Of a stretch of DNA of 64,000 nt, positions 6,903 through 26,096 are shown one piece after another. The stretch is from an uncultured Myxococcaceae bacterium (GTDB lineage: Bacteria; Myxococcota_A; Polyangia; Polyangiales; Ga0077539). Below the pieces are notes generated by a model that worked only from the letters and a program-made list of their open reading frames with translations, was not told the origin of the DNA and searched no databases. Both the position numbers and the translations under genes were made by a program. The number at the start of each line of letters is the position of its first letter. Position 1 is the first letter of the stretch. The stretch lies in NCBI GenBank assembly GCA_945952225.1, contig CAMFHP010000008.1:1-64000 (forward strand), read 5' to 3'.

Positions 6903-6942
6903 CCCGCAGCCACGGCGTGCGTGCTAGGGTCCGCGCCCTCCG

Positions 6943-7740
6943 ATGGGCGGCGCCATTCACATCTTCGTGACCCTGCCGACGCTGATCTACACGGTGCTGC
7001 TCGGGGCCACGCTGCTCTACTGGCTCTCGGTGGTGCTCGGTGCGCTCGACCTCGACGCGCTCGGCGGCGACGGCGCAGACCACGGCGGCGACGCGCACCA
7101 CCACGACGCGGGCGATGCGTCGGGTGACGGCGATGGCGACGCCGACGGCGACGGCGATCATCCCGGTCACGGCGACCTGCTCTCGGCCCTCGGCGGCATG
7201 TCGATCCGCAAGGTGCCGCTCACGATCTCGCTGAGCTTCACGGTGATCTTCGGCTGGCTGCTCAGCGCGCTCACGGTGCTCTTCGTCGGCGACGTCGCGC
7301 GGCGTGCGGGCGTGCCCTCCGCGGCCTTCAACGCGGTGACCTTCACGCTCACGCTGCTGGTCGCGCTGCGCCTCGCGGGTCTCGCGGTGAGGCCCATCGC
7401 GAAGGTCTTCGAAGCGCGCGGCGCCACGAAGAAGGAGCAGCTCACGGGACGCCTCGCCGAGGTCTCGACCGCGCGGCTCGATGCGCGCTTCGGTCAGGTG
7501 CTCGTCGCCGATGGCGGCGCGGGGCTGCTCATCGACGCGCGCTGGGAGGGCGACCGCACGCTCCGTCGCGGCGAGCGTGTGGTGATCACGCACTGGGACG
7601 CCGAGCGCGCCGTCGCCCACGTCGAACCCCTCGATGCGAGCCCGCGTGTGCGCGCGGTCGACGAGGGCGAGCGCGCGGAGGCAGAGCTTTCGCATTCGGC
7701 TGAAAAACAGACCAATCGACGCGGATCCGATTCGGGGTAA
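6943..7740 (+). CDS. NfeD-like / YqiJ-like inner-membrane protein; usual flotillin partner
   Basis: Three predicted TM helices, a His/Asp/Gly-rich loop (GDGADHGGDAHHHDAGDASGDGDGDADGDGDHPGHGD), and a C-terminal OB-fold-like segment (GQVLVADGGAGLLIDARWEGDRTLRRGERVVITHWDAERAVAHVEP) resembling the NfeD C-terminal beta-barrel. It lies immediately upstream of a flotillin gene, as in yqiJ-yqiK. Confidence 0.7.
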   Translation: MGGAIHIFVTLPTLIYTVLLGATLLYWLSVVLGALDLDALGGDGADHGGDAHHHDAGDASGDGDGDADGDGDHPGHGDLLSALGGMSIRKVPLTISLSFTVIFGWLLSALTVLFVGDVARRAGVPSAAFNAVTFTLTLLVALRLAGLAVRPIAKVFEARGATKKEQLTGRLAEVSTARLDARFGQVLVADGGAGLLIDARWEGDRTLRRGERVVITHWDAERAVAHVEPLDASPRVRAVDEGERAEAELSHSAEKQTNRRGSDSG

Positions 7741-7833
7741 CCCGCCGATTCTCGTCCGTACGTGCCCGCCGCGTCTGGTACGGTCCGCGCCGCCGTCGCG
7801 CCGGGGTGCCGACGTAGCCAAAGGGAGCGTTGG

Positions 7834-9783
7834 ATGGACAGCCTCATTCCTGTTGTGATCGCGGCGAGCGCGCTCGGCGTGCTCGTGCTCGGCATCATGG
7901 CCCTGCTCGCACGGTTCTACCGACAGGTCGATCAGGGCAAGGCGCTGATCGTCAACACGCTGAAGGCCGAGCCCCTCGTGACCTTCACGGGCACCGTGGT
8001 CTACCCCATCGTGCATCGCGCCGAGGTGATGGACATCTCGGTGAAGACCATCATGATCGACCGCCGCGGCAAGGAGGGGTTGATCTGCAAGGACAACATC
8101 CGCGGCGACATCAAGGTCACGTTCTTCGTGCGGGTGAACAAGACCCAGGAGGACGTGCTCAAGGTCGCGCAGTCGATCGGGTGTGCGCGCGCGAGTGATC
8201 CCGCGACGATCGAGGGGCTCTTCGAAGCGAAGTTCGCCGAGGCGCTCAAGACCGTGGGCAAGCGGCTCAACTTCGAAGACCTCTACAAGGAACGCGACCA
8301 CTTCAAGGACGCGATCATCGAGGTCATCGGCAAGGACCTGAACGGCTTCGTGATGGACGACTGCGCCATCGACTATCTGGAGCAGACGCCCGTCGAGTCG
8401 CTCGACAAGGACAACATCATGGACGCGGAGGGCATTCGGAAGATCACCGAGCTCACCGTGATCCAGAACGTGAAGACCAACGACCTGCGCCAGAAGGAGC
8501 GCATGGAGGTCGGGGCCCAGAACCTCTCGGCCGACGAGGCGCTCTTTCGCTTCGAGCAGAAGCGCTCCGAGGCCGAGGCGCGGAAGAACAAAGAGGTCGC
8601 CGTCGCGCAGGCCCGAGAGCAGAACGAGGCCGTGCGCGTCGCCAACGAGGAGCACAAGCGCACCGCCCTCGCGCAGGAGAAGAACGCCGAGGAGACCCTC
8701 GTGGCCCAGCAGGCCCGCGAGCGCGCCGTGCTCGTCGCCCAGAAGAACAAGGAGCGCGAGATCGCCGTGGAGCAGGAGCGCGTCGAGCGCGCCCGTCAGC
8801 TCGAAGCGGCCAACCGCGAGAACGACGTGACCGCGCTCAAGATCACCCGCGAGGCCGAGATCGAGCGTCAGCGCCGCGAGATCGCCGACGTGGTGCGCGC
8901 GCGCATCGTGGTCGAGAAGTCCGTGGCCGAAGAGGAGGAGCGCATCAAGGACGTGCGCGTCCTCGCCGATGCGAACCGTCAGAAGGACGCGAAGCGCATC
9001 GCCGCCGAGGCCGACGCCGCGCAGAACCTCGTGAAGCAGGTGAAGGCCGCCGAGGCCGCGGAAGAGGTCGCGAAGTTTCAGGCGCGTCAGCAGCTCGTGG
9101 CCGCCGAGGCCGCGCTCGAAGCCGCGGAGAAGCAGAGCCGCGCGAAGGTGCGTCTCGCCGAGGGCGTGCAGGCCGAAGCCGCCGCCGCGGGCCTCGCCGA
9201 CGTGCGGGTGCGCGAGGCCGCCGCCGCCGCGGTCGAGAAGCAGGGCCTCGTCGATGCGCGGGTGATGCTCGAGAAGATGCAGGCCGAGGCGCAGGGCGCC
9301 GAGCAGCAGGGCGTGGCGCGTGCGAAGGTGCGCGAGGCCGAGGCGCGCGCGCTGGAGCTGCAGGGCGCCGCCGAGGCGTCGGCGATTCGCGCGAAGATGA
9401 GCGCCGAGGCCGCGGGCATCGCCGAGAAGGCCGAGTCGATGAAGGCCCTCGACGCCGTGAGCCGCGAGCACGAGGAGTTCCGCCTGCGACTGGAGCAGAG
9501 CAAGGTCATCGCGCTGGAGTCGATCCGCGCGAAGAAGGACGTGGCCGGCGTGCAGGCCGAGGTGCTCCGCGCGGCCTTCGAGCACGCGAAGATCAACATC
9601 GTGGGCGGCGACGGGCAGTTCTTCGAGCGCTTCATGCGCGCGGTGACGCTCGGTCAGTCCATCGACGGCGCCATCGACCAGAGCGACACATTGCGCTCGC
9701 TGCTCACGCAGATCGCCGAGACCGAGGCCGCGCCCGCCGAGACGGCCGAGACCGCGGAAACCTCCCCCCGCCGCGCGCGCTGA
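7834..9783 (+). CDS. Flotillin family protein (SPFH/band-7; YqiK/FloT-like)
   Basis: ATG at 7834 preceded by AAGGGAG. The product starts MDSLIPVVIAASALGVLVLGIMAL (TM helix), then an SPFH domain (QGKALIVNT...VVYPIVHRAEVMDISVKTIMID...), then a long Ala/Glu/Arg/Gln-rich coiled-coil typical of flotillins. Confidence 0.85.
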   Translation: MDSLIPVVIAASALGVLVLGIMALLARFYRQVDQGKALIVNTLKAEPLVTFTGTVVYPIVHRAEVMDISVKTIMIDRRGKEGLICKDNIRGDIKVTFFVRVNKTQEDVLKVAQSIGCARASDPATIEGLFEAKFAEALKTVGKRLNFEDLYKERDHFKDAIIEVIGKDLNGFVMDDCAIDYLEQTPVESLDKDNIMDAEGIRKITELTVIQNVKTNDLRQKERMEVGAQNLSADEALFRFEQKRSEAEARKNKEVAVAQAREQNEAVRVANEEHKRTALAQEKNAEETLVAQQARERAVLVAQKNKEREIAVEQERVERARQLEAANRENDVTALKITREAEIERQRREIADVVRARIVVEKSVAEEEERIKDVRVLADANRQKDAKRIAAEADAAQNLVKQVKAAEAAEEVAKFQARQQLVAAEAALEAAEKQSRAKVRLAEGVQAEAAAAGLADVRVREAAAAAVEKQGLVDARVMLEKMQAEAQGAEQQGVARAKVREAEARALELQGAAEASAIRAKMSAEAAGIAEKAESMKALDAVSREHEEFRLRLEQSKVIALESIRAKKDVAGVQAEVLRAAFEHAKINIVGGDGQFFERFMRAVTLGQSIDGAIDQSDTLRSLLTQIAETEAAPAETAETAETSPRRAR

Positions 9784-9835
9784 ATCCCCGTCCTCTCCAC
9801 GTCCATTCCCCCGCACCTGACCGGGAGCGAGAGCC

Positions 9836-12800
9836 ATGTCCGACGCCGCTGAGAACACGGCGGCCTCCGAGCTCGGAGGCAGCTACGAGGTGATCCGCCG
9901 AAGGCTCATCGAGCAGGCGACCGAGCTCGGTCGGCGCGCCGAGCAGCTCAACGCGCGCCGCATCGAGGTGTTCGGCGGCAGCGACCTGAGCCTCACGGCC
10001 ACGGAGCGCGTGCGCACGGAGAACAACTGCCTCCCGCGCGACATCGTCGCCGTGGGGCCGCGGCTCCTCGTGGCCTACGACGTGTTCGTGGGCATGAAGA
10101 GCGAGGTCACCGTGGCCGACGTGTTCGGCCTCCACCGCGTCGTGCGCAACGAGCAGGGCGCACCCACGCTCGAACCGCTGCCCCTCGACGACGGCGGGTT
10201 TCTCAGCGACGAGCGCTTCGTCCGCGAGTTCGGCGACCTGTTCAAGTACGTGCGCGAGGCGCGGATCCTCCAGCTCCGTCGCACCGATCACCGCCTGCTC
10301 GCGGTGTTCTCCACGGGCCCCGGCGCGCGCGATCGGAGGGTGTTCCGCTGGAGCATCGACGCCGCGGGACGCATCACGTACCTCGACGCGCGCGGCGAAG
10401 AGGACCACGTGCGCCCCCGCGCCCACGACTTCACGTGGAAGACCGCCACGCGCGAGAACCACGTGCAGGGCCGCCATCCCCACGTGTCGATCTTCGACGA
10501 GGTCTTCGTCGAGACCATCGGCGGCGACCTCACCATCAAGGTCGAGAACAACACGGCATCGGGCCAGGGCATCTACGCCGAGCCCGTCGACGACGCGAAC
10601 CAGTCGCTCGACGACGCGACGATCGGCTACGCGCGGCTCGGCGCGCTGATCCTGCTGCGCGTGAAGCCCTACCGCGAGAGCGTCACGCGGCATTTTCTCT
10701 ACAACCCGCGGCGTCGTCAGGTGCTGCGCATCGACGCGTTGGAGCAGGCCTGCCTCGCGCTGCCCGAAGACCACGGCGCGATCTTCTCGACGGGCTACTA
10801 CCTCGTCACCGGCGAGCACAAGCTCTTCGACGCCGAGGGCGGGCCCATGACCTTCGAGCGCGTGCTCCGCGCGCCCAACGGCGAGGACGTGCTCTACGTC
10901 TTCTTTCGCGAGAGCGACGGTCGCTACCTGCTCTTTCCGTACAACCTCATTCGCAAAGAGGTCGCGACGCCGATCACCTGCCACGGGTACTCGCTCTTCG
11001 ACGACGGTGCGCTCATCGTCTTTCGTGCGGCGCCCGGTGAAGAGCCTCGCAGGGTGCATCCGATGCAGGTGTGGCGGACGCCCTTCGTCTCCGCGGAGGT
11101 GGCCGCGAGCGCGCCGGTGGCAGGGTCGTTCCTGGGGCGCGTGGGCAACCCCGACCTGGTGCGCGGCATCTCCGAGGCGCTCTCGCTGCGACGACTCGCG
11201 CTCGGCGAGAACCCCGATCGGCAGACCTGGGAAGACCTCATCGCCGCGTCGGGACGCATGGTCGATGCGTTCCACTGGCTCGGCCACGCGGAGTGCTTCG
11301 ACCTGCTGGGTGCGCTCAAGCAGGTGCGCGCCGTCGCCGAGCAGATCGTCGACGAGTACGAGAAGGTCGTCGCGATCCGCGCGCGCGCCGCCGAGGCCCT
11401 CGCGAAGGCCGAGGGCGATCAGAAGGAGCTGCTCCGCGCGCCCGCCGATGCGTCGGAGAGTGCCGACGCGTTCATGCAGGCGCTCACGGCGCTGCGTCGT
11501 CAGCGGGGTGCCCTCGGAACGCTCCGCGAGATGCGCGCGATGAACCTCACGCGCGTCGAGGCGTTGGAGTCCGAGGTCGACGCGCGCTTCACCGAGACGA
11601 GCCTCGCGGCGGCGACGTTCCTGTGCCGCGACGACGCGCTGCGCCCGCTCGTCGAGAAGGTCGACGCCGCGGTCGCGCAGGCCGAGAAGGTCGCGCGCTC
11701 CATCGAGCTCGCCCCCGCACAGGCCGAGGTCGACCGCGTGTACGAGGGCACCACCGTGCTCTCCGAGACCGTCGCGGGACTCCAGGTCGACGACCCCACG
11801 GTGCGCACGCGCATCCTCGACGCGATCGGCGAGGTCTTCGGCCGCGTGAACCGCGCCCGCGCCGTGCTCCAGGGCCGCGCGAAGGAGCTCCGCGGCCACG
11901 AGCTCCGCGCCGAGTTCGCGTCGCAGTCGAAGCTCCTCGCGCAGGCCATCCAGAGCGCGCTCGCGGTGGCCGACACGCCCGAGCGCTGCGACGCATCCCT
12001 CTCGCGCCTCGTGGTGCAGCTCGAAGCCCTCGAAGGCCGCTTCGGCGAGCTCGACGAGTTCGCCCCCGAGCTCGCATCGCGGCGCGAGGAGCTCCACGAC
12101 GCCTTCGGCGCGCGGCGCCAGACCCTCGTCGACGAGCGGCAGAAGCGCGCGGCGAACCTCATGGCCGCGGCGGAGCGCATCCTCCAGGGTGTCGAACGCC
12201 GCGTGCGCGCGATCCCCTCGCCCGAGGAGCTTCACGCGTACTTCGCGGGCGATCCGATGGTGGCGCGGGCCCGCGAGCTCGTGGCGCAGCTCCGCGCGCT
12301 CGGCGACGCGGTGAAGGCCGACGAGATCGAGGGACGCATCAAGTCCGCGCGTCAGGAGGGCACGCGCGCGCTCCGCGACCGCAGCGATCTGTTCGACGGC
12401 GCCGACAACGTCATCCGCTTCGGCCAGCACCGCTTCTTCGTCAACACGCAGCCCCTCGAACTCGCGATCGTTCCCCGTGACGGCGCCCTCGCGCTGCACC
12501 TCACGGGCACGGATTTCTACGAGCCCCTCGAAGACCCGCGCCTCGACGAGGCCCGCGATCTCTGGGCGCAGACGCTCCCCGGCGAGTGCGAGACCGTGTA
12601 CCGCGCGGAGTTCCTCGCGGCGTGTGTGCTCCGCGACGCCGAGCGCAACGAGCGCGGCCTCTCGATCGAGACGCTCCGTCAGGAGTCGCTCAAGTCCGAC
12701 GGGCTCCTCGCGCTCGTGCGAACGTGGTCCGCGGAGCGCCACGACGAGGGCTACGAGCGCGGCGTGCACGACGTCGATGCTGCGGCCATTCTCGGCGCGC

Positions 12801-15535
12801 TGCTTCCCGTGCTCACCGCGGCGGGCACGCTCCGTCACCAGGGCGACGCGCGCTCCCTCGGAGTGCTCCACGCGGCGACGCTCGACGAGCCCGCCCGCAC
12901 CCTCCTCGCGCGGCGTGCCCGCTCGGCCCGCAGGCTCCGCGCGCACATCGGATCGAGCGCCGCGCGCGACGAGCTGGTCGACGAGCTCGTGCCCGCGCTC
13001 GACGCCTCCGCGAAGCTCTGGCGCACCGCCTCTCACGAAGGTCTTCGCCGTCGCGCCGCGCAGTACATCGTCGACGAGCTCGGCGCCGACAGCGCGCGCT
13101 GGGTGCTCTCGTCCGAGGCCACCGCGCTGCGCCTCGCGTTCCTCAAGGTGCTCACGGAGCAGGGCACGCGGTCGGCCTTCGAAGACGACCTGCGCGCGCT
13201 GGAGAAGCTCCCCGCCGAGCGCCTCGCCCTCGCCACGCGCTGGCTCGAAGCCTTCGCGCAGAAGGCGCCCGAGCACACGCGCGCGGTCGCCGAGTGTGCG
13301 GCCTCGATGGTGGTCGACCGACGCATCGAGCGAGAGCCCTCCACGGTGTCGCTCGACGTGAAGATCGAGGGACTCTTCGGTCAGCACCCGCGCGTGCAGA
13401 ACCGCACGCTCGCGCTGCGGCTCGATGAGTTTCTCGCGCGCACCGACGAGATGATCGACGTGCGCCTGCCGCGATGGCGCGCGTACCGAAAGGCCCGCGC
13501 CGAGGTGGCCGAACGCGAGCGCCGTCGACTGCGCCTCGATGAGTTCACCGCGCGCGTGCTCACGAGCTTCGTGCGCAACGGACTGATCGACGAGGTGTAC
13601 CTCCCGCTCGTGGGGCAGAACCTCGCGAAGCAGCTCGGCGCCGCGGGCGATGGCAAGCGCACCGACCTCATGGGCCTGCTGCTCCTCGTGTCGCCGCCGG
13701 GCTACGGCAAGACCACGCTGATGGAGTACGTCGCGAGTCGGCTGGGGCTCGTGTTCGTGAAGGTGAACGGCCCGTCGCTGGGACACGCCGTGGTGAGCCT
13801 CGACCCCTCGGAGGCGCCCAACGCCACCGCGCGCCAGGAGGTCGAGAAGATCAACCTGGCCTTCGAGATGGGCAACAACGTGATGCTCTACCTCGACGAC
13901 ATCCAACACACGAACGCGGAGCTGCTCCAGAAGTTCATCTCGCTCTGCGACGGGTCGCGTCGCATCGAGGGCGTGTGGCGCGGCCGCACGCGCACCTACG
14001 ACCTTCGCGGCAAGCGCTTCTGCATCGTGATGGCGGGCAATCCGTACACCGAGTCGGGCGCGCGCTTTCGCATCCCCGACATGCTCGCGAACCGCGCGGA
14101 CACCTACAACCTCGGCGACATTCTCGGCGGCCGCGACGACGTGTTCGCGCGCTCGTACGTCGAGAACGCGCTCACCTCGAACGCCACGCTCGCGCCCCTC
14201 GCGGGTCGTGACCCCGCAGACCTCCGCAAGCTCCTTCGCATCGCCGAGGGTGAGAGCCTCGCGCCCTCGGAGCTCGCGCACCCGTACAGCGCCGCCGAGG
14301 TGGGAGAGATCACCGCGGTGCTCCGGGGCATGCTCCGCGCGCGCAACACGCTGCTCGCGGTGAACGCCGAGTACATCCGCAGCGCCTCGCAGGAAGATGC
14401 GTTCCGCACCGAGCCGCCCTTCAAGCTCCAGGGCAGCTACCGCAACATGAACAAGGTCGCCGAGAAGATCGTCGCGGCGCACACCGACGACGAGGTCGAG
14501 GCCCTCGTGAGCGACCACTACACCAGCGAGAGCCAGACGCTCACGACGGGCGCAGAGCAGAACCTCCTGAAGCTCGCCGAGCTCCGCGGACGACTCACCG
14601 ACGCGCAGCGCGCCCGCTGGGATGCGATCAAGAAGGAATACCTCCGTCAGAAACGCGTCGGCGGCCGCGACGACGACCCCGTGGCGCGCGTCACGGGCAC
14701 GCTCTCGACGCTCGGCGAGGAGCTCGAACGGCTGCGCACCGACCTCGTGAAGGCCGCGTCTTCTCGCGAGGGAGAGCGCACCGTGGCCGCGCAGCTCACG
14801 CCCCACCTCGACGCGCTCGCGAAGGCCCTCGCCTCGGTGTCGCGCCCCACGCTCGACGTGAGGCTCCCGACGCCCGATCCCCGCGCGCAGGCCGACGCGC
14901 TCGCGCTCGCGCTGCGCAACGCCTCGGCCGACCTCGCGCCCGTGGCCCGCGCCGCACAGCACGGCCTCGGCACGCTCCCCGCGCTCCTCGAGTCGCTCGT
15001 GTCGGTGCTCACCCGCATGGAGCAGCGCCTCGCCGACGCGCCCGTCCCCGTGGCCACGGTCGCCCCCGCGTTGCCCGCGCAGCCCGCCTCCGTGGCCCGT
15101 GCGTCGGTTCCCTCGCCGGCCCCCTCCCCGACCCCTGCGCCGCGCGCGGCGACGCCCGCAAGGCCCCTCTCCGCGCTGCCCGACACCATGGCCGCCGTGC
15201 CCGGTGCGATGCGCTTCGAAGCCACCCTCGACGCGGCGAGCGCCTCGCATCTCTGGGTGCCCCGCGGCGCCGACACCGATGTGCTCCGCGACGGCGGGGT
15301 CTACGTGCAGACCCATCGCGCGCTCCCGCCGCTTGGCGGGCTCGTCTCGCTCGTGATCGACCTCGCGGGTGCGGGACGCTTCGAGGTGCCCGCGCAGGTG
15401 ATGTTCGTCCGCGAGGCCGCCCTCGATGTGCCCGATCCGGGCTTCGGCGCGCGGCTCACGCAGCTCCCGCCGGAGCTCGAACGTGCGCTCCGTCGCTACG
15501 TGATCGAACGTGACCCCGTGCAGGTGCGACGGTGA
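9836..15535 (+). CDS. Giant (1899 aa) MoxR-like AAA+ ATPase with a long coiled-coil region and a PilZ-like C-terminal domain
   Basis: A single uninterrupted ORF with a GGGAG ribosome-binding site before the ATG at 9836. Near residue 1300 there is a Walker A motif (LLLLVSPPGYGKTTLMEYV), a Walker B motif (NVMLYLDDIQH) and a sensor region (FCIVMAGNPYTESGARFRIPDMLANRADTY) that resemble MoxR/dynein-type AAA+ modules. After a Pro/Ala-rich linker, the last roughly 110 aa (LRDGGVYVQTHRALPPLGGLVSLVIDLAGAGRFEVPAQVMFVRE...GFGARLTQLPPELERALRRYV) follow the myxobacterial PilZ-domain pattern but lack the canonical RxxxR / DxSxxG motifs. The antisense 1870-aa ORF I treat as a shadow. Confidence 0.8.
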   Translation: MSDAAENTAASELGGSYEVIRRRLIEQATELGRRAEQLNARRIEVFGGSDLSLTATERVRTENNCLPRDIVAVGPRLLVAYDVFVGMKSEVTVADVFGLHRVVRNEQGAPTLEPLPLDDGGFLSDERFVREFGDLFKYVREARILQLRRTDHRLLAVFSTGPGARDRRVFRWSIDAAGRITYLDARGEEDHVRPRAHDFTWKTATRENHVQGRHPHVSIFDEVFVETIGGDLTIKVENNTASGQGIYAEPVDDANQSLDDATIGYARLGALILLRVKPYRESVTRHFLYNPRRRQVLRIDALEQACLALPEDHGAIFSTGYYLVTGEHKLFDAEGGPMTFERVLRAPNGEDVLYVFFRESDGRYLLFPYNLIRKEVATPITCHGYSLFDDGALIVFRAAPGEEPRRVHPMQVWRTPFVSAEVAASAPVAGSFLGRVGNPDLVRGISEALSLRRLALGENPDRQTWEDLIAASGRMVDAFHWLGHAECFDLLGALKQVRAVAEQIVDEYEKVVAIRARAAEALAKAEGDQKELLRAPADASESADAFMQALTALRRQRGALGTLREMRAMNLTRVEALESEVDARFTETSLAAATFLCRDDALRPLVEKVDAAVAQAEKVARSIELAPAQAEVDRVYEGTTVLSETVAGLQVDDPTVRTRILDAIGEVFGRVNRARAVLQGRAKELRGHELRAEFASQSKLLAQAIQSALAVADTPERCDASLSRLVVQLEALEGRFGELDEFAPELASRREELHDAFGARRQTLVDERQKRAANLMAAAERILQGVERRVRAIPSPEELHAYFAGDPMVARARELVAQLRALGDAVKADEIEGRIKSARQEGTRALRDRSDLFDGADNVIRFGQHRFFVNTQPLELAIVPRDGALALHLTGTDFYEPLEDPRLDEARDLWAQTLPGECETVYRAEFLAACVLRDAERNERGLSIETLRQESLKSDGLLALVRTWSAERHDEGYERGVHDVDAAAILGALLPVLTAAGTLRHQGDARSLGVLHAATLDEPARTLLARRARSARRLRAHIGSSAARDELVDELVPALDASAKLWRTASHEGLRRRAAQYIVDELGADSARWVLSSEATALRLAFLKVLTEQGTRSAFEDDLRALEKLPAERLALATRWLEAFAQKAPEHTRAVAECAASMVVDRRIEREPSTVSLDVKIEGLFGQHPRVQNRTLALRLDEFLARTDEMIDVRLPRWRAYRKARAEVAERERRRLRLDEFTARVLTSFVRNGLIDEVYLPLVGQNLAKQLGAAGDGKRTDLMGLLLLVSPPGYGKTTLMEYVASRLGLVFVKVNGPSLGHAVVSLDPSEAPNATARQEVEKINLAFEMGNNVMLYLDDIQHTNAELLQKFISLCDGSRRIEGVWRGRTRTYDLRGKRFCIVMAGNPYTESGARFRIPDMLANRADTYNLGDILGGRDDVFARSYVENALTSNATLAPLAGRDPADLRKLLRIAEGESLAPSELAHPYSAAEVGEITAVLRGMLRARNTLLAVNAEYIRSASQEDAFRTEPPFKLQGSYRNMNKVAEKIVAAHTDDEVEALVSDHYTSESQTLTTGAEQNLLKLAELRGRLTDAQRARWDAIKKEYLRQKRVGGRDDDPVARVTGTLSTLGEELERLRTDLVKAASSREGERTVAAQLTPHLDALAKALASVSRPTLDVRLPTPDPRAQADALALALRNASADLAPVARAAQHGLGTLPALLESLVSVLTRMEQRLADAPVPVATVAPALPAQPASVARASVPSPAPSPTPAPRAATPARPLSALPDTMAAVPGAMRFEATLDAASASHLWVPRGADTDVLRDGGVYVQTHRALPPLGGLVSLVIDLAGAGRFEVPAQVMFVREAALDVPDPGFGARLTQLPPELERALRRYVIERDPVQVRR

Positions 15536-16308
15536 GCGCAGCCCGTCTCGTCACGGTCGCTGTCGTGCTGGTGGCGTGCGCGGCGCGTCCTGCGTCGGTG
15601 CTCCCCGACGTCTCGCACACCGAGCTCACGTCGCGCGCCGTGCAGGTCACGCCCGATCTCACGGTGCGTCCGCTGGCGCCCGGCGTGTTGCGCCACACCT
15701 CGTGGCGCGTGCTGCCCGACGTGGGGCGCTTTCCCTCGAACGGCCTTGTTCTCCTGGGCCCGCATGAGGCCATCGTGGTCGACACCGCGTGGGGTGCGGA
15801 GCTCACGGAGGCGCTCTTCACCCACATCGAGCGCGACCTGCACCGACGCATCACGCACCTCGTGGTGACGCACTCGCACGACGACCGCATCGGCGGCATT
15901 CGCGAGGCGCTGCGTCGTCACGTCGCCGTGCACGCGCTCACCCTCACCGCCACGCGTGCGACGGCCGAAGGGCTCCCGCCACCCACCGACCCCTTCGAAC
16001 GCGAGACCGCCGTCGACGCCGATGGAATGCGCGTGGAGGTCTTCTTCCCCGGCGCCGCCCATGCCCCCGACAACGTGGTCGTGTGGGTCCCCTCGCAGCG
16101 CATCCTCTTCGGCACGTGCATGGTGCGCTCGGCCGACGCGCGCTCCCTCGGCAACCTCGCCGACGCGTCCGTCGCCACGTGGGCTGCATCGGTGCGCGCG
16201 GTGATGGCCCGCTATCCGTCACCCGCCATCGTCGTGCCGGGCCACGGCGAACCCGGCGACGCCTCGCTCCTCACGCACACGCTCGACCTCGTGGCCGTGG
16301 GACGCTGA
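15532..16308 (+). CDS. Subclass B1 metallo-beta-lactamase lipoprotein
   Basis: GTG start at 15532 overlaps the TGA stop of the upstream giant gene (GTGA). LVAC lipobox in the signal peptide. B1 zinc-ligand motifs are present in order: HSHDDRIGG (H116-x-H118-x-D120), GAAHAPDNVVVWVP (H196), ILFGTCMV (C221) and VVPGHGEPGD (H263). Confidence 0.85.
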   Translation: MSAARLVTVAVVLVACAARPASVLPDVSHTELTSRAVQVTPDLTVRPLAPGVLRHTSWRVLPDVGRFPSNGLVLLGPHEAIVVDTAWGAELTEALFTHIERDLHRRITHLVVTHSHDDRIGGIREALRRHVAVHALTLTATRATAEGLPPPTDPFERETAVDADGMRVEVFFPGAAHAPDNVVVWVPSQRILFGTCMVRSADARSLGNLADASVATWAASVRAVMARYPSPAIVVPGHGEPGDASLLTHTLDLVAVGR

Positions 16309-16312
16309 CCCG

Positions 16313-16870
16313 TCACCCGCCGCAACGCGCGAGGCACACGCCGCTGCAGCATCGCATTCCGCCGCAGCTCACGCCGCACGCGCCGCAGTTCGCGGTGTTC
16401 GCCTGCGTGTCGACGCACGCCCCGTTGCAGAGCTGCCGCGCGCCCTCGCAACCGCACGCGCCGCTGCGACACACGAGGCCCGACTCGCAGCGGTTCAAGC
16501 ACCGACCGCAGTTGGAGCTCGACTCCGTGAGGTCGACCTCACACCCGTCGCTCGCGCGGCCGTTGCAGTCGGCCCATCCCTGCTCGCACTCGCACGCGCC
16601 CGCGTTGCAGACCTGGTGGTCGCCGCACGCGCAGACCCGCGCGTCGCTCCCCGTGTCGACCGACGCATCGCGGCCCGTGTCGGGCGCGCTGTCACGCGAG
16701 ACCACGTCGGGCGTCGACACGTCGGGCGCGGGCGCGTCCATCGGGGCCATCGCGTCGGGCACGGAGAGATCCGTGCGATCGAAGTCGAGCGCGACCGTGC
16801 ACCCGCCGAGCGCGTGCGCCACGACCGTCACCACTCCCCACCGGGACCACAGGCTGCGCACCGTCGCCAT
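16313..16870 (-). CDS. Secreted cysteine-rich repeat protein
   Basis: Internal ATG at 16870 (MATVRSLW...) within ORF 16313..16948. Signal peptide with GGC. The C-terminal half has repeated CxCxxxxxCxxGxCxC-type units (VCACGDHQVCNAGACECEQGWADCNG..., CGCEGARQLCNGACVD..., CGACGVSCGG). Confidence 0.55.
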   Translation of the reverse strand: MATVRSLWSRWGVVTVVAHALGGCTVALDFDRTDLSVPDAMAPMDAPAPDVSTPDVVSRDSAPDTGRDASVDTGSDARVCACGDHQVCNAGACECEQGWADCNGRASDGCEVDLTESSSNCGRCLNRCESGLVCRSGACGCEGARQLCNGACVDTQANTANCGACGVSCGGMRCCSGVCLARCGG

Positions 16871-17026
16871 GAGCCGTCCTCCGTCGACGCCCGCACCGGC
16901 AGACGCACCCGCCAAGGTACCGGATCGCGCGCGCCTGCAAAGCGGCACCTTTGCACACGCGAAGCGCGCAACGTTCTCACACCCGCGACGTGGCGCGGCG
17001 TGGCCGTTTCGCCGTGCGCCGCACGA

Positions 17027-17461
17027 TCACCAGGCCGACACGCCCATGGCCTCGGCAATCCGCGCAGCGTCGTCGCGCGACACCTCGAAGTGCCCGCGTC
17101 GCGCGAGCATTCCCCACCCTGCGTCGCGCGTGAACGAGAGCGCCGCACGCAGCGCCGCGAGCGGAACCTCCCTCGCCTCCGCGCACCAGCGCACGTCGCG
17201 ACGAAAGGGCGTGAACCCGCCGCCCATGTCGACCTGCACCACGGGTCCGTCGCCGACGCGACCGAGGGCCGTGAACGCCTGCAGCGCGTCGCCGCCGTTC
17301 ATCTCCGTGCGCGGCGAGTAGACGATGAAGCCGTCGCCCGCGGCCATGCGCACGAGCGGCGCGCGCTTGCCGTGGCACACCTGCGTGAAGCCGCCCGCCA
17401 CTCCGCGCATCACGTGACTGCGCGAGATCACCCCGATCCAGAACCGCGTCGTGTCGTTCAT
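17027..17461 (-). CDS. PUA-like (EVE/ASCH-superfamily-like) domain protein
   Basis: 144 aa. FWIGVISRSHVMRGVAGGFTQVCHGKRAPLVRMAAGDGFIVYSP resembles small PUA-like barrel proteins. The exact family assignment is uncertain. Confidence 0.55.
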   Translation of the reverse strand: MNDTTRFWIGVISRSHVMRGVAGGFTQVCHGKRAPLVRMAAGDGFIVYSPRTEMNGGDALQAFTALGRVGDGPVVQVDMGGGFTPFRRDVRWCAEAREVPLAALRAALSFTRDAGWGMLARRGHFEVSRDDAARIAEAMGVSAW

Positions 17462-21591: not shown

Positions 21592-23226
21592 ATGTTCGAC
21601 TCGCTCACCAAGGGTTTCCGCGCCGCCCGCCAACGCCTCACCGGCATGGCGGAACTCTCCGAAGACGTCATCGACCAGGCGCTCCGCGATGTGCGGGTGT
21701 CGCTGCTCGAGGCCGACGTCGAGCTCGGGGTGGTCAAGCGCTTCCTCGCGCGCGTTCGCGAGAAGATGCTCGGTCGCGTGGTGCAGGTGCGCGCCGAGCA
21801 CCAGGGCAAGAAGCTCAACATCGCGCCCGAGCAGATCTTCGTGAAGGCCTGCGAAGAAGAGCTCACGGCCATGATGGCCGACAACGACCCCGAGCCCCTG
21901 CGCGAGGCGCCGAAGGGCAACCCCACCGTGGTGATGATGGTGGGCCTCCAGGGGCAGGGAAAGACCACGACGAGCGCCAAGCTCGCGCGGCTCTACGCGA
22001 AGGAGGGCAAGAAGGTGCTCCTCGTCGCGGCGGACCTTCAGCGCCCCGCGGCCGTCGAGCAGCTCACGGTGCTGGGCAACAAGATCAACGTGCCGGTGTT
22101 CAGCGTGCCCGGCGCGACGCCCGTCGAGGTGTGCCGCCGCGCGGTCGCCGTGGCGCGCGTGCAGAAGAAGGACCTGGTCATCCTCGACACGGCCGGTCGC
22201 CTCGCGATCGACACGACGCTCATGGGCGAGCTGCAGGCCATCAAAGACGAGACGAAGCCGCAGAACATCCTGCTCGTGGTGAACGCGGCCATCGGGCAGA
22301 ACGCCCTCGCGACGGCGCAGGCCTTTCACGAGACGCTGGGGCTCACGGGCGTGGCGCTCACGATGCTCGACGGCGATGCGCGCGGCGGCGCGGCGCTCTC
22401 GATCCGTGAGGTCACGGGCGTGCCGATCAAGTTCGCGGGCATGGGCGAGACCGTCGAGCAGCTCGAAGCGTTTCGCCCCGACGGCATGGCGTCGCGCATC
22501 CTCGGGATGGGCGACATCATCGGCATCGTCAACGACTTCAACCGCGTCGTGACCGACACGAAGAAGGTCGAAGAAGACGCCCAGCGGATGCTCCAGGGCA
22601 ACTTCACCTTCGACGACTTCGTGCAGCAGATCTCGATGATCCAGCAGATGGGTCCGCTGAAGGAGCTGTTCGAGAAGATGCCCTTCTTCTCCGAGATGCT
22701 CCCGCAGGACGTGAACATCGACGACCGCGAGCTCGACCGCGTGAAGGCCATGATCGCGTCGATGACCGCGCAGGAGCGCCGCGACCCCGACGTCTTCAAG
22801 AACCAGCAGGGCCGCGTGCAGCGCGTGGCGAAGGGCTCGGGACGCAAGCCCGAAGACGTCGCCGAGCTCATCGCCAAGTTCATGATGATGCGCGAGATGA
22901 TGGGCGGCATCGGCAAGCAGGCGGGCTTCCTCTCGAAGCTCCCCGGCGCGAAGCAGCTCGCGATGGCGCGGCGCCTGCGCGAGATGGTGCGCGTGCAGGG
23001 CGAGAACGCGGCGATGTCGACGCTCATGCAGGAGATGCTCGAAGCGGCCGTGGCAGGCAACGGCGCACCGGGCGGTCCCGGCGGCATGGGCGACCCCATG
23101 GGCTTCATGAACTCGCTGCTCGGGGGCGGCGGGGCGGGCGGCGCGAACCGCGGCGGTCAGCCCGGCATGCGCCAGCGCGACGTGCGTCGGCAGCAGCGCC
23201 TCGCGAAGAAGAAGACCCGGAAGTAA
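21592..23226 (+). CDS. ffh: Signal recognition particle protein Ffh
   Basis: MFDSLTKGFR... N-domain, then the SRP GTPase G-domain (GLQGQGKTTT P-loop, DTAGR, LTMLDGDARGGAALS) and a Met-rich M-domain (KFMMMREMMGGIG). ATG at 21592. Confidence 0.95.
   Translation: MFDSLTKGFRAARQRLTGMAELSEDVIDQALRDVRVSLLEADVELGVVKRFLARVREKMLGRVVQVRAEHQGKKLNIAPEQIFVKACEEELTAMMADNDPEPLREAPKGNPTVVMMVGLQGQGKTTTSAKLARLYAKEGKKVLLVAADLQRPAAVEQLTVLGNKINVPVFSVPGATPVEVCRRAVAVARVQKKDLVILDTAGRLAIDTTLMGELQAIKDETKPQNILLVVNAAIGQNALATAQAFHETLGLTGVALTMLDGDARGGAALSIREVTGVPIKFAGMGETVEQLEAFRPDGMASRILGMGDIIGIVNDFNRVVTDTKKVEEDAQRMLQGNFTFDDFVQQISMIQQMGPLKELFEKMPFFSEMLPQDVNIDDRELDRVKAMIASMTAQERRDPDVFKNQQGRVQRVAKGSGRKPEDVAELIAKFMMMREMMGGIGKQAGFLSKLPGAKQLAMARRLREMVRVQGENAAMSTLMQEMLEAAVAGNGAPGGPGGMGDPMGFMNSLLGGGGAGGANRGGQPGMRQRDVRRQQRLAKKKTRK

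Positions 23227-25316: not shown

Positions 25317-26096
<780 letters not shown>

Follow-up and report, generated by a model that had tools for sequence, protein, structure and literature searches.

Positions 15532 to 16308 of a 64,000-nucleotide stretch of DNA from an uncultured myxobacterium (the whole stretch that was analyzed, hereafter the window) encode a metallo-beta-lactamase (MBL) whose GTG start codon overlaps the stop codon of a gene for a 1899-aa ATPase. Our analysis indicates, with a probability that we put at about 0.8, that this is the resident chromosomal gene for a subclass B1 MBL of a Polyangiales-type myxobacterium and that the ATPase is an incidental neighbor. An earlier note on this DNA had recognized the enzyme class, the lipoprotein-type signal and the overlap, all of which we recover, and had taken the context as odd and as a hint of a non-antibiotic role, a suggestion that comparison with related loci did not support. 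The gene and its immediate upstream context are as follows.

15532–16308, + strand: subclass B1 MBL coding sequence (CDS), 258 aa, GTG start, TGA stop
15532–15535, + strand: GTGA, the 4 nt common to the MBL start (GTG, 15532–15534) and the ATPase stop (TGA, 15533–15535)
15522–15526, + strand: AGGTG, a weak Shine–Dalgarno-like motif of putative function, within the ATPase CDS and 5 nt 5′ of the GTG
9836–15535, + strand: upstream neighbor, the 1899-aa ATPase (DUF3686 + DUF7902 + AAA), given as context and not as a demonstrated functional partner

The window encodes a subclass B1 enzyme with two complete zinc sites

The local sequence at the MBL start is cgGTGAgc. Only six in-frame codons separate the GTG from the preceding stop. 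A start at either of the following in-frame GTGs (codons 12 and 14) would cost the protein its signal peptide, which leaves 15532 as the one sensible choice. At 72% GC, with a range of 68–76% throughout, the window holds long spurious open reading frames (ORFs) in all frames; a filter on third-position GC yielded a + strand run of genes at 6928–7740, 7741–9783, 9821–15535 and 15514–16308 (stop-to-stop coordinates). Public assemblies contain five contigs that encode this exact MBL protein, the longest of 128 kb, and the protein is also present in an NCBI source for which no name is shown. On all four contigs examined, each from a different metagenome assembly with independent gene calls, the start call and the 4-nt overlap are the same. 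Because these four assemblies carry an identical MBL protein, they represent one lineage and not four.

The protein matches the NCBIfam subclass B1 equivalog model NF033088 over profile positions 3–216 of 217 with 242.8 bits (cutoff 200) and Pfam Lactamase_B (PF00753) with E = 7e-16. A sequence search of the PDB returned BcII as the best match (E = 2e-50), followed by a Pontibacter enzyme, VIM, CcrA and GIM. The alignment to BcII has 42% identity over 207 residues with one single-residue gap, and within it H114, H116, D118, H177, C196 and H238 pair with H86, H88, D90, H149, C168 and H210 of BcII. These residues, which align with BcII without gaps, are the zinc ligands at positions 116, 118, 120, 196, 221 and 263 of the standard BBL numbering, and they complete both zinc site 1 (H114/H116/H177; BBL His116, His118 and His196) and zinc site 2 (D118/C196/H238; BBL Asp120, Cys221 and His263). 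Alignment to BcII in BBL numbering, the check that the earlier note had named for its six ligands, thus leaves every ligand in place. BBL D84, W87, R121 and N233 are matched as well, and none of the six ligands varies in an alignment of 22 sequences that takes in both close and distant homologues. The positions listed here were assigned from the sequence, the BcII alignment and the 22-sequence alignment.

15871–15885, + strand: codons of H114-S-H116-D-D118 (BBL H116-x-H118-x-D120), followed by R119 (BBL R121)
16060–16062, + strand: codon of H177 (BBL H196), zinc site 1 ligand
16117–16128, + strand: codons from C196 (BBL C221, zinc site 2) to R199 (BBL 224)
16243–16245, + strand: codon of H238 (BBL H263), zinc site 2 ligand

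Enzymes of subclass B3 have His121 and lack Cys221, and those of subclass B2 have Asn116. Both subclasses are excluded here because His116 occurs together with Cys221 and Arg121. At BBL 224 the window protein has Arg (R199) in place of the usual Lys. In the 22-sequence alignment Arg224 is common to the whole close clade and to several other environmental B1 proteins, whereas Lys is retained in the Myxococcia enzymes. Active B1 enzymes differ from one another at this position, with Leu in VIM-26 and His in VIM-7 according to PDB titles, and the Lys-to-Arg change is therefore unlikely to abolish activity.

An AlphaFold2 model built with the 22-sequence alignment has a pLDDT of 91.7 and a pTM of 0.85, with low confidence confined to the N-terminal ∼30 residues. 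The top 50 Foldseek matches in the PDB are all B1 enzymes, with target-normalized template-modeling (TM) scores of up to 0.95; the best of them have scores of 0.94–0.95 and root-mean-square deviations of 1.3–1.6 Å. The model superposes on BcII with a target-normalized TM score of 0.94 and a deviation of ∼1.4–1.6 Å, and it also superposes on VIM and CcrA. Taken with the profile match and the ligand set, this places the window protein in subclass B1 almost beyond doubt.

The pairing with the ATPase gene is confined to one lineage

To judge the ATPase context we surveyed the best 80 genome loci with ATPase relatives (47–73% identity), using 6-kb flanks and one genome per species. The loci come from Sorangium, Chondromyces, Labilithrix, Myxococcus, Corallococcus, Archangium, Nannocystaceae, Haliangiales and others; the relatives among these 80 all belong to Myxococcota, and the closest, at 73% identity, are from metagenome-assembled genomes (MAGs) of Polyangiales. 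A tblastn search with the MBL found no MBL within 6 kb of the ATPase gene in any of the 80. The two proteins encoded upstream of the ATPase, in contrast, are present in 61 and 51 of the loci. Because this upstream pair recurs and the MBL is found in none of the loci, the conserved unit consists of three genes and ends at the ATPase.

The position that the MBL gene occupies is filled differently elsewhere. The gene immediately 3′ of the ATPase was evaluable in 63 loci. These 63 genes belong to 34 unrelated clusters, and 36 of them lie on the same strand and 27 on the opposite strand, in convergent orientation. Even in the nearest relatives the slot holds a DUF4291 pair, a PEGA protein, a porin, a FIST protein or a Stig1-like Cys-rich protein. 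The view from the MBL side is the same: none of the six MBL homologues with readable flanks (55–71% identity; P0002, P0004, P0005, P0008, P0014 and P0015) lies next to a DUF3686 ATPase, and the six are found in six different contexts, for example AraC–MBL–LysR, hemerythrin–MBL and DUF4215–MBL. A cut-off ORF just upstream of P0002 (positions 1–663 of its locus), the closest homologue with a context, was considered as a possible ATPase C-terminus and rejected, as it has no similarity.

The MBL–ATPase pairing is thus limited to a single lineage at the species level. When neighboring bacterial genes on one strand overlap, they do so most often by 4 nt at start and stop; here this overlap makes co-transcription and re-initiation plausible, but says nothing about a common function. 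The MBL carries an export signal, whereas the ATPase lacks a signal sequence and presumably stays in the cytoplasm. We consider a functional link between the two proteins extremely improbable. An adjacency without conservation offers no evidence of a non-antibiotic role, and it opens no new question about the native function of MBLs. Nor is a B1 MBL odd in a myxobacterium: B1 homologues are present in 62.9% of Myxococcota species, where they are mostly predicted lipoproteins, with measured carbapenemase activity (PMC13616975).

Predicted localization and activity

The N-terminus, judged by eye, reads M-SAAR-LVTVAVV-LVAC-AARPAS and consists of a positive n-region, an uncharged hydrophobic core and a lipobox.

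15532–15579, + strand: signal peptide, codons 1–16 (M-SAAR-LVTVAVVLVAC), assigned by eye, with the Cys and A-C-A conserved in close homologues
15568–15579, + strand: lipobox L-V-A-C ending in Cys16, assigned from the sequence

The usual lipobox rule calls for an Arg in the first seven residues and for six uncharged residues, and the window protein follows it with L-V-A-C and Cys at position 16. An A-C-A motif (codons 15–17) overlaps the lipobox and could act as a type I cleavage site; the Cys and the overlapping A-C-A recur in most close homologues of the 22-sequence alignment, with the consensus LLxACA. Such a dual type I/type II signal is typical of myxobacterial MBLs (PMC13616975). On these sequence features the enzyme is probably a lipoprotein.

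The simplest mechanism consistent with these features is that the precursor would be exported via Sec and that the mature enzyme would most likely be lipidated on Cys16 and tethered to the membrane facing the periplasm, like NDM-1, with the overlapping A-x-A site as a possible alternative route to a soluble periplasmic form. The alpha-beta/beta-alpha domain would hold two Zn(II) ions, one at H114/H116/H177 and the other at D118/C196/H238, and the zinc-bridging hydroxide would attack the beta-lactam carbonyl while R199 (BBL 224) binds the substrate carboxylate and N208 (BBL 233) helps to polarize the carbonyl. The expected outcome is EDTA-sensitive hydrolysis of penicillins, cephalosporins and carbapenems, which might guard a soil or sludge myxobacterium from beta-lactams made by its neighbors. 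Transcription would probably come at least in part from read-through of the upstream three-gene ATPase operon, and translation could proceed by re-initiation at the GTGA overlap. The arrangement behind the ATPase would have arisen only in this lineage, with no functional link.

Judged from the sequence and the model, beta-lactamase activity is very likely. When computationally predicted B1 genes were expressed in E. coli, 18 of 21, including MYX-1, STA-1 and ANA-1, hydrolyzed imipenem (PMC5637372).

Several points weigh against the interpretation as a resident, active and lipid-anchored enzyme with an incidental neighbor. The window enzyme belongs to an uncharacterized clade, and 3 of the 21 predicted B1 genes were inactive on imipenem (PMC5637372). 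In E. coli, the lipoboxes of myxobacterial MBLs were not processed as lipoprotein signals (PMC13616975). With one genome per species and a 6-kb flank, the survey could have missed a rare second MBL–ATPase pairing. As regards co-transcription and coupling, a scan of 14800–17100 for sigma-70 promoters and intrinsic terminators gave no sites, where ∼0 are expected at 72% GC.

The alternative that fares best concerns the anchor alone. The enzyme could be active but soluble in the periplasm, cut by type I signal peptidase after A15-C16-A17 and free of lipid. The A-x-A motif that overlaps the lipobox is shared through the clade consensus, and most myxobacterial MBLs have alternative type I sites and were soluble and periplasmic in E. 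coli (PMC13616975). Behavior in E. coli may differ from that in the native host, the lipobox of the window protein conforms to the rule given above, and the Cys is conserved in most close homologues. We regard the soluble form as possible and distinctly less probable than the lipoprotein.

In a second alternative, the B1 fold and ligands are in place, yet the protein hydrolyzes beta-lactams poorly or not at all, or acts preferentially on a different substrate. The three genes without imipenem hydrolysis had intact motifs (PMC5637372), and Arg in place of Lys at 224, in an uncharacterized clade, would fit such a case. This reading is unlikely, because all first-shell and key second-shell residues (D84, R121 and N233) are conserved, Arg224 occurs throughout the clade and in other environmental B1 proteins at a position that varies in active VIM enzymes, and the predicted fold is of high confidence, close to BcII, and accompanied by an NF033088 score above the cutoff.

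Relation to named B1 families

The closest database relatives of the window MBL are metagenomic, with 71%, 68% and 67% identity and below. They include clusters with MFO0691994.1, MEZ4325669.1 and MCA9578405.1 whose representatives are 60–67% identical to the window protein by BLASTP; the named cluster members are annotated 'subclass B1 metallo-beta-lactamase' at NCBI and come from Polyangiales, Sandaracinaceae and 'Myxococcales' MAGs and one Alphaproteobacteria MAG. Enzymes of Cystobacter, Myxococcus and Pyxidicoccus sp. 3LFB2 are 38–44% identical to the window protein, the last being from a strain isolated in PMC13616975. In a neighbor-joining tree the window protein falls in a clade of ∼19 mostly metagenomic sequences, apart from the Myxococcia clade. 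The phylogeny against known B1 enzymes that the earlier note had proposed thus yields a separate clade, but as a rough guide only, since the tree has no support values and its NDM-1 and VIM-2 sequences are approximate.

Among the family-specific NCBIfam models, IMP and others included, every score is far below its cutoff: PYX, the best, 199 bits against 473, BcII 180 against 500, COR 177 against 450, MYX 167 against 520, VIM 163 against 500 and NDM 128 against 580. With these scores and 42% identity to BcII, the proposal of a new B1 lineage holds up. By its sequence the window MBL is distinct from every named family and belongs to a separate uncharacterized clade, and it would count as a new family under the rule of <70% identity used by Berglund et al. 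2017 (PMC5637372).

The kind of enzyme is already well known, since B1 MBLs are common in Myxococcota. The window gene resembles those for MYX-1/2, COR-1, PYX-1/2, STA-1 and ANA-1 (PMC5637372, PMC13616975) in its Myxococcota host and in being chromosomal with no mobile elements nearby, and the proteins share the full six-ligand set, a short lipobox signal peptide and an overlapping type I site. The MYX, COR and PYX enzymes are potent hydrolases and predicted lipoproteins (PMC13616975). The Myxococcia enzymes differ from the window protein in their Lys at BBL 224, in sequence (38–44% identity) and in forming a separate clade in the rough tree; the hosts differ too, the window gene being of Polyangiales type whereas the aligned enzymes come from Myxococcia. 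The unnamed MBLs of Polyangiales and Sandaracinaceae MAGs have the ligands, R224 and the lipobox in common with the window protein, but their contexts differ (AraC–MBL–LysR; beta-helix protein–MBL) and none lies behind the ATPase gene.

By both sequence and structure the closest solved enzyme is BcII of Bacillus cereus (PDB 4c09, 1bc2 and 6dja), which has the same ligands, R121 and N233 but is a secreted, soluble Gram-positive enzyme with K224, and whose family model gives the window protein only 180 bits against a cutoff of 500. NDM-1 and VIM share the subclass and fold; NDM-1 is likewise a lipoprotein and VIM has the same HxHDDR motif. Identity is 33% to NDM-1 and 37% to VIM-2, both figures being approximate. 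NDM-1 and VIM are acquired clinical carbapenemases, whereas the window gene is chromosomal and without a mobile context.

These relationships also allow a more ambitious reading, in which the Polyangia clade, with its Arg224 and at most 44% identity to the aligned Myxococcia enzymes, would be an unrecognized, functionally distinct B1 branch, whose window member was recruited into an envelope-associated ATPase operon, with production tied to the signal of that module. If true, this would mean native regulatory integration and not a simple resistance gene. We give it very little credence. On the reading as a resident gene with an incidental neighbor, the window MBL adds one more B1 lineage to the catalogue of the environmental resistome, a contribution of modest value, and shows that Polyangiales-type myxobacteria too carry resident B1 enzymes, where the 2026 study of Lambropoulou regarded Polyangia as not contributing to the spread of B1 enzymes (PMC13616975).

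Probable chromosomal location

The 128-kb contig carries the MBL gene with ffh, parA and parB nearby. The neighbors of the MBL gene encode an MXAN_6577-like Cys-rich protein, an EVE-domain protein, a channel-like protein, a fatty-acid hydroxylase and a pterin-4a-carbinolamine dehydratase, and further on Ffh, a CBM9 protein, ParA and ParB. The positions of ffh, parA and parB were taken from the gene table of one of the four contigs (L001) by a +5531 conversion.

16313–16870, − strand: convergent gene for an MXAN_6577-like cysteine-rich protein (NF041328, E = 5e-13, below cutoff)
21592–23226: ffh (signal-recognition-particle protein), in the region 5–10 kb downstream
25317–26096: parA, downstream of the MBL gene
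from 26177: parB, downstream of the MBL gene

The presence of ffh and parA/parB suggests that the locus is chromosomal and possibly near the origin. We found no integrase, transposase or other mobile-element genes in the 20 kb read around the MBL gene, a search in which attC sites were not specifically sought. Third-position GC of the MBL gene (GC3) is 0.88, similar to that of the neighboring genes, and gives no compositional sign of recent import. The description of the gene as chromosomal in the earlier note is therefore reasonable. With no sign of mobility, there is no evidence of clinical relevance.

The stop codon of the convergent gene is 4 nt from that of the MBL gene, which leaves no room for a terminator between them. 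In one surveyed locus (L019), a much longer Stig1-like Cys-rich protein is encoded directly 3′ of the ATPase.

Positions 15340–15380, in the 3′ region of the ATPase gene, and 16266–16306, in the last MBL codons, form an imperfect direct repeat of 41 nt (31/41), and the encoded peptides are also alike (LVSLVIDLAGAGR and LLTHTLDLVAVGR). One in 300 random 41-mers has an equally good match within 1.5 kb, so that the repeat is within chance after multiple testing. It was considered as an insertion scar and rejected, being only 31/41 and at chance level, and because the copies would enclose the conserved ATPase C-terminus. The idea of a mobile resistance determinant that was acquired recently and landed behind the ATPase gene could draw on this repeat and on a position unique to the lineage. 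It is nonetheless very unlikely, given the want of transposase, integrase or integron features in the 20 kb, the host-like GC3, the chance level and placement of the repeat, and the fact that the closest relatives are chromosomal genes of Polyangiales and Sandaracinaceae MAGs.

The upstream three-gene module

The module that ends at the ATPase is conserved across Myxococcota and spans 6943–15535 on the + strand.

6943–7740, + strand: gene 1, small membrane protein with an acidic Gly/Asp/His-rich loop
7834–9783 (or from a GTG at 7762), + strand: gene 2, ∼650-aa protein, membrane-anchored at its N-terminus, with a long Ala/Glu-rich coiled coil
9836–15535, + strand: gene 3, the ATPase

The least probable alternative, already largely refuted by the lack of conservation, makes the MBL a functional fourth part of this module. 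It would be regulated together with the module and would serve, alongside the membrane proteins and the ATPase, in some process of the envelope or on a substrate other than an antibiotic. In favor are the same-strand 4-nt overlap, stable in four assemblies, the membrane-associated look of both upstream proteins and the export of the MBL to the envelope. Against it, those assemblies, with their identical protein, are one lineage, every beta-lactamase-specific residue is kept, and the MBL is missing from all 80 ATPase loci (within 6 kb), the ATPase from all six MBL contexts, and any constancy from the 3′ slot, with its 34 unrelated clusters and 27 of 63 genes on the opposite strand.

Apart from its neighbor, the module itself yielded few leads. 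By eye, and unsupported by any match, the 649–673-aa protein resembles a flotillin-like membrane-anchored coiled coil and the 265–270-aa protein a membrane protein with a C-terminal soluble domain. Neither of these upstream proteins had a usable match in Pfam or NCBIfam, even with E allowed to reach 5, and a PDB sequence search with the upstream 673-aa protein gave no match. The same search with the ATPase returned only marginal matches in the AAA+ Walker region (Cdc48, VCP and Rix7; E ∼1e-3). A PADLOC scan of the four operon proteins found no defense-system match, and a literature search for DUF3686 or PF12458 found no papers.

ATPase residues 1819–1889 (window 15290–15502) match TIGR02266 weakly (E = 4e-5; 23.6 bits against a cutoff of 68.7). 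This is a myxobacterial paralogous domain family that we take to be PilZ-related, and the match hints that the ATPase C-terminus may be a regulatory domain. Opposite the ATPase gene, an antisense ATG-started ORF of 1870 aa runs from 9704 to 15316 on the − strand. It fails the third-position GC test, and we rejected it as a gene: it is an artifact of 72% GC, and ORF length alone is not evidence for a gene in this window.

Among the ATPase relatives, the record BNCN01000023.1, labeled 'Comamonas sp. KCTC 72670', encodes a myxobacterial ATPase with 56% identity and the same match extent as in Myxococcus sp. CA023. A Myxococcus assembly was misclassified and deposited under the name Comamonas (GCF_016735485; PMC13616975), and the two are probably the same genome.

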